Positions 4,317 to 57,013 of a stretch of 64,000 nucleotides of DNA are shown piece after piece (position 1 is the stretch's first letter; each line of letters opens with the position of its first letter). Made by a program: the position numbers and the translations under genes. The stretch lies in IMG/VR virus record IMGVR_UViG_3300020036_004254; one strand, 5' to 3'. Origin of the DNA: a virus (lineage: Duplodnaviria > Caudoviricetes). The notes under the pieces were generated by a model that saw only the letters and a list, made by a program, of their open reading frames with translations, was not told where the DNA came from and did no database searches.

Positions 4317-4694
4317 ATGGCTATAACCGTACTGAAGAAAACACCAATTCATTGTGTGGTGAAAGTATCTGGGGCTAGTACAGAAACTATTACATTAGCT
4401 ACCACATTACTTTTTGGTCCAAATGAAGTGGCGAATAATCCCCGTGTAGATATTATGGGCCTACATTGGTGCATTCCGGGTGCAACGGCGGCAACTGTTG
4501 TGAGAAATGGTGTAACCGTCTTTTCATTGATTGGGGCGTGGGGTGAACAGTTTAACGGGTTTTCAGACACGCAAGAAAACGAATCAAACATTTCCGTCAC
4601 CATTCCTGCGGGTGGTGGACAAGTCATTTTGGAATTGTTAAAGGTGTCTGGATATGGCAACACACAGCACCGCAACTTCAATCAGGACGGCTAA
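4317..4694 (+). CDS. Hypothetical beta-rich head-module protein
   Basis: Intact ORF with RBS (GAGG) just before gp21. Confidence 0.6.
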   Translation: MAITVLKKTPIHCVVKVSGASTETITLATTLLFGPNEVANNPRVDIMGLHWCIPGATAATVVRNGVTVFSLIGAWGEQFNGFSDTQENESNISVTIPAGGGQVILELLKVSGYGNTQHRNFNQDG

Positions 4695-42519: not shown

Positions 42520-43662
42520 GTGAAGGCTGTCAAGCTACATCATGTCGGTCCCTCTGCCGCTGAACGGGGGACCATTGGAGAAGAGCCAGATTGGACCCAA
42601 GAAAAGGTGACGAACTATTCATCGGCCTTGTCTAGGGGGTTGAACTGGTACAACTATATCTGTGACCACAAGAACTACACCAAGTTCTTGGCAGAGTGGA
42701 TTCAGACTAATCGCTCTGATACGGCCAAAAAAGATTTGTCGCGTTTGGACAAGCTTTCTGAGAAGGAAGTGAATGCCACAACCGCCATCTTTGCCAGAAT
42801 GCATCTGAAGGGATTCCCCCTGAGCGAAGGACATCAAGAGATTATCACAGATTATGTGAATGGTCTGAAGCGTCTGGACAAGGTCAAGTCTGAATCGTCT
42901 GACGAACCAAAGGGTCCGTCAGTACAAGACCGGATGCGCCAACAGGTGTCTGGGGCCTTGTCAGAAATCGATGTGGCGGTGGACAACTTCTTGGTTGATA
43001 ACATTAAAGTAGACTTCGACAAGTTGCGCGATGTTATTTTCAACCCGCTCTTCAAGGGTCCGCACCACGCCATTATCGAAAAACACCTGAAGCGGTACAT
43101 TGCGGAATGGCAAGAGGCTGTGGACGCCATGAACGGGAATTTCAGGAACCCAGATTCTAATCAGTTGGCGGAAGGGTACGCCTACACGGGTGGACCCAAG
43201 TTCATGAACAATCTTATCACCAAGTTCTCTGCTCTACGAAACACCTTGACCACGGAAGGTGCCAAGGTCAAGATGCAACGGATTCGGAAGAAGAAGCCTG
43301 TGGATAAGAAGAAGATGGTGTCCAAGATGAAGTTCCTCAAGGAGTGTAAGGAACTGGGCTTGACAAGCGTCAATCCCGCTGATATCATTGGAGCCACCAC
43401 CCTCTGGGTCTATGACTGCAAGAAGCGCAAGCTTGGAATGTTTGAAGGGGAGTTCTCAGGAAGTTTGCATGTCAAGGGGACAACCATCCTTGGAGTCAAG
43501 CCCTCATTCCAGAAGACCCTGCGAAAGCCAGACCAACAGATGGCTGAGTTCATTAAGCTCAGGAAAAACCAGACCGCCAACTTCTTTGGCGCAATCAAGG
43601 CCAAGCCCCAAGAAATGACGGGCCGAACCAACACTGATTTGATTCTGGTTAGAGTGGACTGA
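42520..43662 (+). CDS. Conserved T4-like hypothetical protein
   Basis: LNWYNY; SVNPADIIGA, VKGTTI, KTLRKP, GRTN. Confidence 0.7.
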   Translation: MKAVKLHHVGPSAAERGTIGEEPDWTQEKVTNYSSALSRGLNWYNYICDHKNYTKFLAEWIQTNRSDTAKKDLSRLDKLSEKEVNATTAIFARMHLKGFPLSEGHQEIITDYVNGLKRLDKVKSESSDEPKGPSVQDRMRQQVSGALSEIDVAVDNFLVDNIKVDFDKLRDVIFNPLFKGPHHAIIEKHLKRYIAEWQEAVDAMNGNFRNPDSNQLAEGYAYTGGPKFMNNLITKFSALRNTLTTEGAKVKMQRIRKKKPVDKKKMVSKMKFLKECKELGLTSVNPADIIGATTLWVYDCKKRKLGMFEGEFSGSLHVKGTTILGVKPSFQKTLRKPDQQMAEFIKLRKNQTANFFGAIKAKPQEMTGRTNTDLILVRVD

Positions 43663-49407: not shown

Positions 49408-49476
49408 TTTTCTGTGGTGAAATGGAGAACACCCTCTGCTAGCGGGGGATTGTGGGTTCGAGTCCCACCAGAAAGA
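49408..49476 (+). ncRNA. tRNA-shaped RNA with collapsed anticodon loop
   Basis: TTTCTG/CAGAAA acceptor, D arm, canonical T arm; loop only 4-6 nt (GCTAGC). Confidence 0.6.
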
Positions 49477-51460: not shown

Positions 51461-51530
51461 ATTTTCGTAGCCAAGCGGTCACGGCACCCCCATTGCAGGG
51501 GGCATCGTAGGTTCGAATCCTACCGGAAAT
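51461..51530 (+). ncRNA. Gln-like tRNA-shaped RNA with a 6-nt anticodon loop
   Basis: ATTTTCG/CGGAAAT; GCC-AAGCGGTCAC-GGC; CCCCC-ATTGCA-GGGGG; GTAGG-TTCGAAT-CCTAC. Confidence 0.65.
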
Positions 51531-51533
51531 ATT

Positions 51534-51870: not shown

Positions 51871-52067
51871 AACTCATTGGGAGGTTGTGGTTTAGGGAAA
51901 CAAGGTTCTTGACGGAGCCTCAAGCCCCATCCGTAAATGTGCGTCAACACGTTTGTATTCGGACAGCAAAGGAGTCATCGACTCTGCACCTGACTGCTAC
52001 CGCTACATTACATCGGGTCTGGGGGAGTCCCTATTGCAAAAGGTATAAAGAACCTGTCCCCCTCCAC

Positions 52068-52140
52068 GCACTGGTAACTCAACTGGCAGAGTATCCGCCT
52101 CTTAAGCGGAAAGTTATGGGTTCGACTCCCATCCGGTGCA
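52068..52140 (+). tRNA. tRNA-Lys(CTT)
   Basis: TCCGC-ctCTTaa-GCGGA; GCACTGG/CCGGTGC. Confidence 0.92.
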
Positions 52141-52398
52141 TTGTTTGAAAATGATATACTCTGGAAAAGAAGAATTTACATTTCTTACACTCTTGAAGGG
52201 AAAGAAAGAACGTATACACCAGACTTCTTTCTACCAAATGAAAATTTGTACTTAGAAGTAAAGGGATACTTTTCAGAAATTGACAAGAAAAAGATTGATG
52301 TTGTATCAAAGATAATACCGATAAAGCTTGTGTTCAAAAAACATCTAGATAGGTTGAAAACAATTTCAACGATTGATGAACTTCTTGGCGTTTTATAG
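52141..52398 (+). pseudogene. PD-(D/E)XK nuclease-domain remnant
   Basis: YTPDF..YLEVKG; abuts the tRNA-Lys 3' end; no RBS or N-terminal domain. Confidence 0.6.
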
Positions 52399-52407
52399 AA
52401 CAACTGA

Positions 52408-52480
52408 CGGCGTGTAATTCAATGGTCAGAAATTTCGTCTTATATACGAAAAGTTGTGGGTTCAATTCCCACCACGCCTA
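52408..52480 (+). tRNA. tRNA-Ile(TAT)
   Basis: TTCGT-ctTATat-ACGAA; GGCGTG/CACGCC. Confidence 0.8.
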
Positions 52481-52484
52481 CTTT

Positions 52485-52573
52485 TGTCAAGTGTGGGAAA
52501 ACTCCTTAGCGGGGGCTAGGTCGGTTGGTATGCCGACAGGGTTCGAATCCTATACAACACCCGACACTTGACA
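52485..52573 (+). ncRNA. tRNA-like RNA on a 13-bp extended stem
   Basis: TGTCAAGTGTGGG/CCC-G-ACACTTGACA enclosing three hairpins, the last with a GGTTCGAATCC T-loop. Confidence 0.6.
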
Positions 52574-52579
52574 TATCAC

Positions 52580-52652
52580 GGCTCTATCGTCTAGGGGACA
52601 AGGACACCACCCTCTCAAGGTGGGGACGGCAGTTCGAATCTGCTTAGAGCTA
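52580..52652 (+). tRNA. tRNA-Glu(CTC)
   Basis: CCACC-ctCTCaa-GGTGG; GGCTCTA/TAGAGCT. Confidence 0.9.
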
Positions 52653-52757
52653 TTGGGTTGTGTAACACGGAAGGAACGCCGTGTGACTATATCAAAGCGG
52701 GTGTTAATCTCGCCACAATCCCCACTTGACTTCGATGAAACATGGTAGTATACTTAC

Positions 52758-52831
52758 GCCCTTATAGCTCAGTCCGGAAGAGCGACGGTCTTCGGAACCG
52801 TGCGTCGGGAGTTCAAATCTCTCTAGGGGCA
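52758..52831 (+). tRNA. tRNA-Arg(TCG)
   Basis: ACGGT-ctTCGga-ACCGT; promoter TTGACT-N17-TATACT at 52726-52754. Confidence 0.9.
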
Positions 52832-52853
52832 CTTCATTCATCATGGGGGGGTT

Positions 52854-53261
52854 ATGCAAACGTTTCTACCGTATGCGGACTTTGACAAGACGGCACAGGT
52901 GCTTGACCGTCAGCGGTTGGGCAAGCAACGCATCGAAGCTAAACAGATTTTGCAAAACCTTCTAGAAGAAACAGAGAAGCAGGGGTGGAAGAATCACCCT
53001 GCGGTCAAGATGTGGAAGGGAAGTGAAGGTGTGTTGGCACAGTACGGTGTGGCGATTTGTGCAGAGTGGGTTCGTCGGGGTTACAAAGACAACCAGATGG
53101 CCTACTTTGTTGAGCGTGTCAACAATGCACCAACGCCTACATGGTTGGGTGACAATGCGTTTCATGTGGCGCATCAATCCAATCTGGTACGAAAGAACGC
53201 AGAGCATTACGGAAAGTATTTTCAGGTCACAAACGATTTGCCGTATGTGTGGCCAGTTTGA
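52854..53261 (+). CDS. MSMEG_6728-family pyrimidine-dimer DNA glycosylase-like protein
   Basis: MQTFLPY, LDRQRLGKQRIE, HPAVKMW, HQSNLVRK, YVWP. Confidence 0.85.
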   Translation: MQTFLPYADFDKTAQVLDRQRLGKQRIEAKQILQNLLEETEKQGWKNHPAVKMWKGSEGVLAQYGVAICAEWVRRGYKDNQMAYFVERVNNAPTPTWLGDNAFHVAHQSNLVRKNAEHYGKYFQVTNDLPYVWPV

Positions 53262-53262
53262 G

Positions 53263-53296
53263 TGGTGAGGTAATGGCTCACCAAGGCCACGACGGG
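53263..53296 (+). other. 16S rRNA helix-11-like fragment
   Basis: TGGTGAGGTAATGGCTCACCAAGGCCACGACGGG closely matches recalled bacterial 16S sequence (E. coli ~250-285 region). Confidence 0.75.
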
Positions 53297-53414
53297 CAAA
53301 TTCTCTTTAATCATTCGACCAGTTGATGGAACTGGATTGCCGTACTACGACTACGGTGGTGTCTTACGGACGTTCTCAGTGGGAATGGACGAAGAAATCA
53401 AAATCCATCACTGA

Positions 53415-53485
53415 AGGTCATTCGTCTATCGGTAAGACTTCCGCCTCCAAACCGGAAAAGGTGGGTTCGATTCCTACATGGCCTG
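53415..53485 (+). tRNA. tRNA-Trp(CCA)
   Basis: AGGTCAT/ATGGCCT-G; loop ctCCAaa. Confidence 0.85.
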
Positions 53486-53520
53486 TTGCAGTTTCATCAT
53501 TTCACTTAGTGAGGTTTCAC

Positions 53521-53814
53521 ATGTTTAATCCGCTTTCCGACAACGTTATTATCACCCCTTCAACCGCTTCCGAGACACAGACCGCTGGTGGTTTGTACAT
53601 CCCAGAGACGGCTCAGGCGAACGGTGCCATCACTCACGGTACTGTTGTGGCGGTTGGTCCCGGTCATATCTATGATTCCGGTGTCCGTGGAGAAATGTTG
53701 ACCAAGGTTGGTGATACCGTGTGGTACGCCAAGGGTCATGCGTCAACCATCACGTTGGATGGTAAGCAGTACAAGGTTGTGGCAGAGCGCAACATCTTTG
53801 GGTATCATCGGTAA
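53521..53814 (+). CDS. groES: Co-chaperonin GroES-like
   Basis: PLSDNVII, TAGGLYIPETA, GTVVAVGPG, KVGDTV. Confidence 0.92.
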   Translation: MFNPLSDNVIITPSTASETQTAGGLYIPETAQANGAITHGTVVAVGPGHIYDSGVRGEMLTKVGDTVWYAKGHASTITLDGKQYKVVAERNIFGYHR

Positions 53815-54014
53815 TGAAAGACTTCCTGAAGGACATCGCCGTGGGTTCTGTGGTGATGGTAGTGTCTGGTATGGTTTGGGTTGTAGCGTACCATGTTGTC
53901 AACAATCTAAATCTTTTCGATGATATTTTGATGGGACTATTGGCAATTGCTATTATAATGGCCGCGTCTATCGTTGGTACCATTACGAGGAGCCTATGGA
54001 ATTCGTATCGCTAA
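53814..54014 (+). CDS. Small 2-TM membrane protein
   Basis: Two hydrophobic helices; TAATG coupling. Confidence 0.65.
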   Translation: MKDFLKDIAVGSVVMVVSGMVWVVAYHVVNNLNLFDDILMGLLAIAIIMAASIVGTITRSLWNSYR

Positions 54015-54538
54015 CATTGAAACAGTTAGACCAAGACACCGCAGAAATCAGAACGGTGGTCAATACCGATGTGTTGCTGTCTTTGTTCAGAAAGAAGAGG
54101 GTGAAAGAGGTTGAACTGTTTTATGACAATCTTGGGCAGGAAATTGCAAGACAAATCAATGAGGTATTTGGAAACTGCGAACCAGAGTTTTTCGTAGAAT
54201 CGTTGGGTGACCAACAGCACCGAACGCATCGGGGAACCACGGTACATGGACAAACGTTTGTTTCGGTGCAGTCCGTGGTCAAGGTCTTGCCAGAAGGTGG
54301 GGGCTTGACATACGACCTCTCAACCGCTATCGTTGACCATATCAAGGTGGCGATGCGGGAAGGAACCCCGGTGTTTCCACATACGGCAACATCTTTGTGT
54401 GCAGAGGGTGTGTTGTTTAATGTTCTTCTGACAGACGAAAAGAGAATGGAAGGTCTTTCTTTGGATGAAATTGTTCGAATTGCAACAACGGCGTTGGAAA
54501 AGGAAGTACGAAGGGAAGCTTGGAAAGCGCGGGTATAA
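53996..54538 (+). CDS. Hypothetical protein
   Basis: GAGGAG RBS; stop lies inside tRNA-Gly. Confidence 0.6.
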   Translation: MEFVSLTLKQLDQDTAEIRTVVNTDVLLSLFRKKRVKEVELFYDNLGQEIARQINEVFGNCEPEFFVESLGDQQHRTHRGTTVHGQTFVSVQSVVKVLPEGGGLTYDLSTAIVDHIKVAMREGTPVFPHTATSLCAEGVLFNVLLTDEKRMEGLSLDEIVRIATTALEKEVRREAWKARV

Positions 54539-54600
54539 TTCAGTGGTAGAATGCCGAGTTGCCAACCCGGATGCCGTGGGTTCGAACCCCACTACCCGCT
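54529..54600 (+). tRNA. tRNA-Gly(GCC)
   Basis: GCGGGTA/TACCCGC-T; loop ttGCCaa. Confidence 0.9.
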
Positions 54601-56016: not shown

Positions 56017-57013
56017 TGAAGCGGGGAGAACGGGGTGCCTAATCCTCGTCAAGGCGATGCGACACCAGCTATGCCTTGTGGTCCAAGTGTGGACGCCCTG
56101 CACGTTTTCTGAAGGAGTTGTCCTTCAGAGTGGTGGAGGTTCGCTGATTAACAAATGAAAGATGGGGTGTTTGGACTCCATAAGAGCAGTGTGTCGCAAG
56201 ACGCATAAAGGTGTGTATCTTTGTAAGCACCGCTGGCCAAAAGCCAGTTCACCCAAACAAGTCTGACCGAGGGGGTATTCGAACACTCCCGCTTCACTGT
56301 AACGGTGGAGATAGGTCTGAAGAGTAGGTAGAGAAGAAAGCCTCATCGACGCTCCGCAAGGAAAGCGGGTGGGGAAGACTGACAGGTGGTGCTGGGTACT
56401 CTACACAACCAACTATTCGAAGACGGATTGGTAACAGATATACACGCATGTCCAAGGGGTTGCACCCAAGGGCTAGGTGTGATGTCGAAAGGTTTGAGCG
56501 GGGTGCTATTCCAAATAGCCTCGCCCTAAATCTTGACAACAGATTAAGTACCCGGAGCAAGGGGAAAGGTAGCCGTGGAGTGTTGCATTCTGGTATCCAA
56601 AAGATACTGGAACAACTGAGGAAGCACTTCACTCAAAGTTCGTTTAGGGTTAGAAGCCCACAATAATTTGGATATTGCCAAACACAAAAAAGGAAAGACT
56701 TCCTCGGTCTTAACGCGAAAAGTAGCATAATGCCTTCCCGTAAGGAAGAAGGCAGATTCGATGGCCCCAAGCCTGACAATCTTTCATGCAGACTCGCACA
56801 TAATCTCCTAGCGGAGACTAACGGCTCGCAAGGTCGGTGGTAGAGAAAACGTGGAGTAGCGTAAGATGACGGTCACACTGTTCAGACCTTAAAAAGAACT
56901 GCTTCGGTTGTCTACTTCCTTGCGGAAGTGGAAAAGAGGGGAAAGGCTGGTGGGGACACTGGCTCATAATCCCTTGAAAGGACGACTACGGAAGGTGTAT
57001 TCTCAGCCTCCCA
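56017..57013 (+). ncRNA. ~1-kb large structured ncRNA, GOLLD-like
   Basis: No credible ORF; many hairpins with GNRA-type loops; 3' ACTTCC/GGAAGTGGA..AAGGTGTATTCTCAGCCT resembles the recalled GOLLD 3' domain; sits in a phage tRNA cluster. Confidence 0.65.

Follow-up and report, generated by a model that had tools for sequence, protein, structure and literature searches.

Mimicry of the protein-binding sites of rRNA is known from the leaders of ribosomal protein mRNAs, in which S15, S8, L1 and L20 have autoregulatory sites; such leaders lie in the 5' UTR of their own operon, and their likeness to rRNA is mainly structural. Phage T4 encodes, within its tRNA cluster, the small stable RNAs C and D, whose function is unknown and for which no resemblance to rRNA is known. 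Another system with which we compare the element described here is helix 11 (h11) of 16S rRNA (E. coli positions 240-286), which belongs to the uS17 binding domain in the 30S 5' domain. Protein S17 interacts with h11, h7 and h11 together making up its binding domain, and the contact of S16 is the base of h12 (PMC4604426, PMC5591316). Here we report a 34-base likeness of h11 in a phage genome and consider it likely that this is a truncated, phage-borne copy from a widespread but uncatalogued family of modules, shortened by a deletion of ~260 nt between TGGT repeats and derived from a putative mimic of the uS17 site. As in the ribosomal protein leaders, a transcript other than rRNA would bear a copy of a ribosomal protein binding site; unlike the leaders, the element is found in a phage, beside unrelated genes, and is nearly identical to rRNA in sequence. 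An autoregulatory leader was rejected as an explanation, since the locus is not the 5' UTR of a ribosomal protein operon and adjoins genes for a glycosylase, tRNA-Trp and GroES. With RNAs C and D of T4, compared by description only, the element shares the character of a structured non-tRNA RNA among phage tRNA genes in a T4-like context.

The stretch of DNA analysed (64,000 nucleotides, henceforth ‘the window’) is from a large phage with a GC content of 46%, and the called genes of the region of interest are on the + strand. T4-like genes in the window are those for a gp21-type prohead protease, an endonuclease VII-like protein, an HNH protein, a denV-like protein and Cpn10, and more than 20 tRNA genes are present at 49-63 kb. 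Two of these, both identified by Rfam and ARAGORN, border the variable stretch of interest: tRNA-Arg (tcg) at 52758-52832 (+) on the left and tRNA-Trp (cca) at 53415-53485 (+) on the right. Between them lie a denV-like pyrimidine-dimer DNA glycosylase gene (52854-53261, +; 135 amino acids; Pfam PF03013, Pyr_excise, E 2.5e-25), the 16S h11-like piece (53263-53296, +), a linker (53297-53319, +) and a second structured element (53320-53414, +). The gene for GroES (Cpn10; 53521-53814, +; Pfam PF00166) follows tRNA-Trp and served as bait for relatives of the phage. Neither ARAGORN nor the Rfam tRNA model found a tRNA or tRNA-like gene between 53262 and 53414, and no terminator-like site was detected on the + strand from 52000 to 54600, the h11-like hairpin being followed by GACGGGCAAAUUC with no U-tract.

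Other features of the tRNA region were noted in passing. The motif TTCATTCAT(C)ATGG / TTTCATCATT is repeated just upstream of genes and RNA elements (window 52836-52850 and 53497-53520; 4333-4343 in the corresponding locus L385 of a relative, G002) and may be a promoter or processing signal. At 49408-49476 and 51461-51531 ARAGORN calls two tRNAs, one with the anticodon CTA (amber-reading, ‘Pyl’-type) and one whose anticodon loop is unusual; an earlier reading made from the sequence alone (henceforth the sequence-only reading) had also flagged, in the same region, RNAs that are shaped like tRNAs but have disabled anticodon arms. A resemblance to CAAGGCGATG / ACCAGCTA at 56040-56090 was rejected as an ordinary hairpin (CAAGGC with GCCTTG) that gave no match to the h11 covariance model R1 described below.

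The h11-like piece, TGGTGAGGTAATGGCTCACCAAGGCCACGACGGG, is an exact string at 53263-53296 and starts one base past the glycosylase stop codon (53259-53261). It is identical at 33 of its 34 positions to the h11 consensus of 16S rRNA from Actinomycetota, the sole difference being C53288 in place of G. When any base was allowed at this position (position 26 of the 34-mer), the piece matched at least 120 16S genes in GTDB representative genomes; among the 120 matches listed, the base is G in 107, A in seven and T in six, and the taxa are mostly Actinomycetota (Streptomyces, Micrococcales, Nanopelagicaceae, Rhodoluna) with some Gemmatimonadales and Verrucomicrobiota. None of 100 dinucleotide shuffles of the window matched the 34-mer with three or fewer mismatches, and a short-word BLAST of the whole window against 120 rRNA-operon loci returned the piece as its only significant match. 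The sequence-only reading, which had proposed a 16S h11 fragment with a single mismatch after the glycosylase stop codon, was thus borne out. The exact 34-mer with C has no match in IMG/VR or in GTDB representative genomes, and a degenerate pattern for the C variant has none in IMG/VR. The first 28 bases of the C variant occur in 48 metagenome contigs, all of them true 16S of other lineages and none phage-like, and all 48 continue differently from the window, with GAT or TAT. The piece is flanked by glycosylase codons on one side and by an unrelated linker on the other, with no continuation of 16S, and the Rfam SSU model gave no match to it even at E values up to 10. A true 16S rRNA gene or fragment is therefore ruled out by the non-16S flanks, the lack of an SSU match and the fact that this is the lone rRNA-like piece in the window.

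Within the 34 bases, an apical 7-bp hairpin (53263-69 with 53277-83) with the loop GUAAUGG is followed by the 3' strand of h11, AAGGCCACGACGGG. The likeness to 16S therefore extends from the apical stem and its loop through the 3' strand, in sense orientation relative to transcription, and the interval 53264-53292 fits the pattern of the phage modules (h11 apical stem, a 7-nt loop GURAHGG and a 3' strand RGCNAYGA). Unlike h11 in 16S rRNA, the piece lies outside an rRNA gene, has neither the 5' strand nor the base helix, and has a stem closed by foreign sequence: the 5' strand AGCUAG, which is invariant or nearly so in 31 representative modules, is replaced by glycosylase codons AGUUUGAG and one extra base. 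Both the minimum-energy and the centroid folds predict a replacement closing helix in which UGUGGCC (53248-54) pairs with GGCCACG (53285-91), the whole fold (53248-53291, +) having an energy of -20.3 kcal/mol and a z score of -2.5. By the pairing logic read from the sequence, a G-G clash gives way to a G-C pair at C53288, so that the helix with the end of the glycosylase gene becomes a perfect 7 bp. Model R1, a covariance model of the h11 arm derived from the 31 representatives, matched the window at 53248-53300 (35.8 bits, E 2.6e-10) and nowhere else, the search of this phage spanning 64 kb out of the 172 kb or more that its genome measures; the score compares with 55 bits for the copy in G002 and 66-78 bits for true 16S genes. 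The R1 alignment pairs a 3-bp base helix (GCC at 53252-54 with GGC at 53295-97) and also permits a middle helix (GUU with GGC), whereas the minimum-energy fold has the different, 7-bp helix. No outer closing stem P1 with a hairpin at the h12 position (three-way junction) was found among folds of 53240-53420.

Between the linker and tRNA-Trp the second structured element folds with a z score of -3.7 and ends 1-2 nt before the tRNA, its closing stem pairing CAGTTGATGGA (53320-53330) with TCCATCACTG (53404-53413). The sequence-only reading had correctly seen a second structured element here, although it had placed the start of the stem at 53343. A frame of the form GACCAGTTGATGGAACTGGA ... CAAAATCCAT(CA/TG) stands directly upstream of tRNA-Trp in three related phages with a different interior in each (window 53320-53414; contig L400, 51-166; contig L398, 3366-3480). 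Both arms of the window are matched exactly in L400 (18/18 and 17/17) and almost exactly in L398/L399, where the 3' arm has diverged, and the element looks like a hairpin with exchangeable inserts. An exact 21-mer from it had no match in IMG/VR.

One relative with a copy of the h11-like piece is represented by two contigs of the same Logan run (SRR24299656). L395 carries the cluster-mate of the glycosylase (90% identity) and ends 274 nt past its stop codon in ...GCAATCTACCAGCTAGTTGGTGAGGTAACGGCTCACCAAG (terminal letters ...CTACCAGCTAGTTGGTGAGGTAACGGCTCACCAAG); the first 20 nt of L400 equal the end of L395 and are followed by GGCTATGACGGAAGC..., the same stem frame, tRNA-Trp and GroES. The join is inferred from this 20-nt overlap, which lies inside 16S-like sequence, both contigs breaking within the element. 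Joined in this way, the contigs have the glycosylase gene followed, after a spacer of 251 nt, by a complete copy of h11 and then by the frame element, tRNA-Trp and GroES, with 423 nt between stop codon and tRNA compared to 153 nt in the window. For the 98-aa ORF that precedes the glycosylase gene in L395, no other homologue was found. The 34-mer is identical to the relative's copy at 30 of 34 positions and the frame arms are identical, whereas the linker between them is unalike and, in the pairwise alignment with the joined contigs, not conserved; a conserved hairpin beside a diverged linker is compatible with selection on the hairpin and equally with a recent deletion.

Comparison of the two loci points to how the window copy may have arisen. 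L395 reads GTTTGAA-TGGT-TGAAAAC ... (~250 nt) ... GCTAGT-TGGT-GAGGTAAC, and a deletion between its TGGT repeats predicts GTTTGAATGGTGAGGTAA, one base different from the GTTTGAGTGGTGAGGTAA of the window. In this scheme, the ancestor would have had a complete module ~250 nt downstream of the denV-like gene, as the close relative still does, and a deletion of ~260 nt between the two repeats would have fused the stop codon to the hairpin with loss of the 5' strand of h11. Such a deletion explains why the similarity to 16S begins right at the stop codon, with one extra base between TGA and TGGTGAGG. We place the deletion in the lineage of the window by parsimony, because an insertion would need to recreate the 5' strand of h11. 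The remnant would be transcribed with the tRNA cluster and would fold as the 7+7-bp hairpin in which the lower stem pairs with the last glycosylase codons; it may be a relic in decay, or else have been put to new use as a structured 3' end for the glycosylase message. The last codons themselves, CCA GTT TGA (Pro-Val-stop), are of native origin: homologues of the glycosylase at 90%, 81% and 74% identity share the 3' codons CCGTATGTGTGGCC(A/T)GT(T/A)TGA, so the upstream CAGTTTG, which the sequence-only reading had likened to CAGCTTG of 16S, belongs to the gene. No h11 piece is present in the 105 and 318 nt past the stop codons of the 81% and 74% homologues, respectively, or at 80 loci with glycosylase homologues.

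A second relative, G002 (IMG/VR, 126.8 kb), has a GroES 73% identical to that of the window and no homologue of the glycosylase. It contains exactly one match to R1 (55 bits), at another site than in the window: a complete, stem-closed h11 hairpin (GGGAG...CUCCC; L385, 4375-4429) upstream of the conserved 5' region of a GOLLD RNA. The syntenic site of the window (56110-56140, +) reads ccttcaga-g-tggtggagg, with no insert, and is likewise upstream of GOLLD RNA. A look among related phages, which the sequence-only reading had suggested, revealed h11 copies in two relatives. The copies of both share the 5' variant CTACCAGC (16S: CTATCAGC), which suggests descent of the element within phages. The segment 53262-53414 has no match in G002 or in G001, the latter being a 16.8-kb fragment outside the region.

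The surroundings of these sites also differ between the genomes. The 582 nt at window 52833-53414 (glycosylase gene, h11 piece and frame element), bordered on the left by tRNA-Arg, are wholly absent from G002, where tRNA-Arg (L385, 2107-2178) and tRNA-Trp (2183-2259) are only 4 nt apart, and the site upstream of tRNA-Trp is variable in every relative examined. The GOLLD RNA of the window is at 56575-57009 (Rfam, 196 bits); the ~430 nt upstream of it (~56140-56575) are also conserved with G002 and are probably the variable 5' half of GOLLD RNA.

Copies of the h11 core are widespread in other phages. A 25-mer core occurs in 74 IMG/VR contigs, in none of them inside a 16S gene, and a degenerate h11 pattern matches at least 118 IMG/VR contigs; flanks read for 58 new matches to this pattern showed real 16S in only ~2. 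A search of 50,697 phage records with a full Streptomyces 16S sequence returned contaminant records together with short matches embedded in complete phage genomes, nearly all of which lie at 16S positions 231-307 (h11-h12) and which come from at least five lineages, including Streptomyces phages Stella and Omar, four Jedunavirus, Yersinia vB_YenM_30.14 and Shewanella vB_SbaS_Y11. No family of Rfam 15 covers the h11(-h12) module, and we found no paper on phage rRNA mimics or on 16S fragments in phage genomes. The 31 non-redundant representatives mostly fold as a closing stem, an h11 arm and a second hairpin at the position of h12. In their h11 arm 94.6% of cells are paired, the covariation score was reached by none of 500 shuffles, and all four base-helix pairs covary with changes on both sides, a signal that independent captures from different 16S genes could mimic, since these covary too; the non-16S closing stems are for this reason the stronger argument for a self-contained RNA. 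R1 gave no match in 495 kb of other phage loci.

The copy in the window can be set beside these uncatalogued modules (Jedunavirus ZCEC13/SBP, phi80/HK639-like leaders, vB_YenM_30.14, vB_SbaS_Y11, Omar and Stella). It has the same h11 core in sense orientation in a non-coding gap, and its relatives have complete copies. Typical modules, unlike the window copy, have h11 with both of its strands and with base-helix pairs that covary, together with a closing stem and, at the position of h12, a second hairpin. The window copy also sits in a tRNA array; a general association of the modules with tRNA genes was rejected, a tRNA being found within 500 nt at none of 135 module loci.

Two further groups of sites were recorded. 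Enterobacterial prophages of the phi80/HK639-like kind have an h11-h12-like module within the early-left leader, where it follows a putL-like (antiterminator) RNA (L214, 4480-4780, and ~73 IMG/VR prophage contigs resembling it, L201-L274); in related prophages its place is taken by different sequence, and the BLAST matches are split in two pieces. In Enterococcus phage vB_EfeBG-143 (PQ433353.1), positions 42558-42736 match Streptomyces 16S positions 728-906 (179 nt, 84%) within an unannotated gap of the 143.7-kb genome, possibly another rRNA-derived element.

Recurrent retention of exactly h11-h12, in sense orientation and with a closing stem of its own, fits an RNA mimic of the S17 site, and as judged from sequence the module family most likely mimics the uS17-binding part of the 30S 5' domain. 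Such a mimic may titrate uS17, recruit uS17 to phage RNA or divert another factor that recognizes h11. A broader proposal, which we hold to be rather doubtful, is that phages of many lineages, the present lake group with its tRNA arrays and GOLLD RNA among them, make small RNAs copying the uS17/bS16-binding h11-h12 so as to capture a ribosome-assembly protein or divert a host factor that recognizes this helix, the truncated hairpin being still active; the result may then be that 30S assembly in the host is stalled or that phage RNA is protected.

Against our preferred reading of an inherited and then truncated copy, we weighed first whether the truncated hairpin is a minimal h11 decoy that still works, the apical hairpin and 3' strand, closed by glycosylase codons, being sufficient for its ligand (uS17 or other). 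We consider this rather unlikely. The 34 bases still agree with the consensus at 33 positions and with the relative's copy at 30, even as the adjoining linker has fully diverged, yet the high identity may just reflect a recent deletion. The only substitution completes the 7-bp closing helix, and the R1 alignment still leaves room for the base helix (GCC with GGC) and the middle helix (GUU with GGC); however, the lowest-energy fold locks the 3' strand of the h11 internal loop into a regular helix, and the (nearly) invariant AGCUAG strand of the 31 modules is missing from the window. The presence of one copy each in the searched window and in G002 is also in keeping with a working decoy.

It is unlikely that the piece is a generic hairpin without a role related to rRNA, which would protect the 3' end of the glycosylase mRNA after RNase P cleavage at tRNA-Trp or act as a processing signal. 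The hairpin is stable, it lies directly past the stop codon in a tRNA array that has no nearby terminator-like site, and a second structured element abuts the tRNA, all of which would suit such a role. However, the hairpin is not followed by a U-tract, and neither the identity to h11 nor the recurrence of h11 in many phages would be explained. Should the copy be neither an active decoy nor only a structured 3' end, we regard it as a relic.

We think it improbable that the piece was freshly captured from host 16S to fill a junction of illegitimate recombination and left there as a neutral scar, from which an Actinomycetota host could be read. Its best match is indeed Actinomycetota-type 16S with a single difference from the consensus, and it stands at the edge of the 582-nt stretch that G002 lacks. 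However, the 90% relative, with the same gene neighbourhood, has a full copy there that bears the phage-specific CTACCAGC variant of the G002 copy; the exact 34-mer is in no 16S of the GTDB representative genomes, and the 48 metagenome matches to the C variant diverge (GAT or TAT); and recurrence of h11-h12 alone in phages is unexpected from random capture. As to the host, the Actinomycetota form of the helix base, TATCAGC...GACGACGG(GTAG), is also the one seen in copies from enterobacterial prophages and from phages of E. coli, Klebsiella and Yersinia, the enterobacterial phage TATCAGC...GACGACGGGTAG comparing with GATTAGC...GACGATCCCTAG in Salmonella 16S. Because enterobacterial phage copies are thus of Actinomycetota type, unlike Salmonella 16S, the element is not a reliable host marker. 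Since the 90% relative has a complete copy with phage-specific variants, we favour a copy that was inherited and then truncated over one freshly captured. Re-capture from 16S or gene conversion may nevertheless have contributed, because the 34-mer is closer to the 16S consensus (one difference) than to the relative's copy (four differences). The sequence-only reading had offered either a captured host scar that could hint at the host or a retained mimic; the second fits the wider evidence, and the first is weakened by the complete copy of the relative.

Assembly chimerism or chance resemblance is largely refuted: although metagenome assemblers can mis-join at conserved 16S words and L395 and L400 both break within the element, phage sequence is present on both flanks, two relatives have related copies, no shuffle of 100 matched, and a one-off chimera is unlikely because the region 53200-53530 is identical on JGI contig L390 (whose assembly may share its origin with the window's own), an identical glycosylase protein being carried by four contigs.

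Overall, a stand-alone and nearly identical copy of one 16S helix recurs across unrelated phages, for which neither an Rfam 15 family nor a paper was found. The window shows that the module is present in T4-like lake phages too, that it shifts its site between related genomes, that it can be shortened by microhomology deletion and that it is unfit for host inference. Their function is open to direct tests in E. coli, for which cultured phages (ZCEC13, for example) or phi80/HK639-like prophages would serve. Should uS17 or some other h11-binding factor be bound by the modules, they would represent a new phage route to disturb ribosome biogenesis or, alternatively, the borrowing by phages of an abundant host RNA-binding protein.
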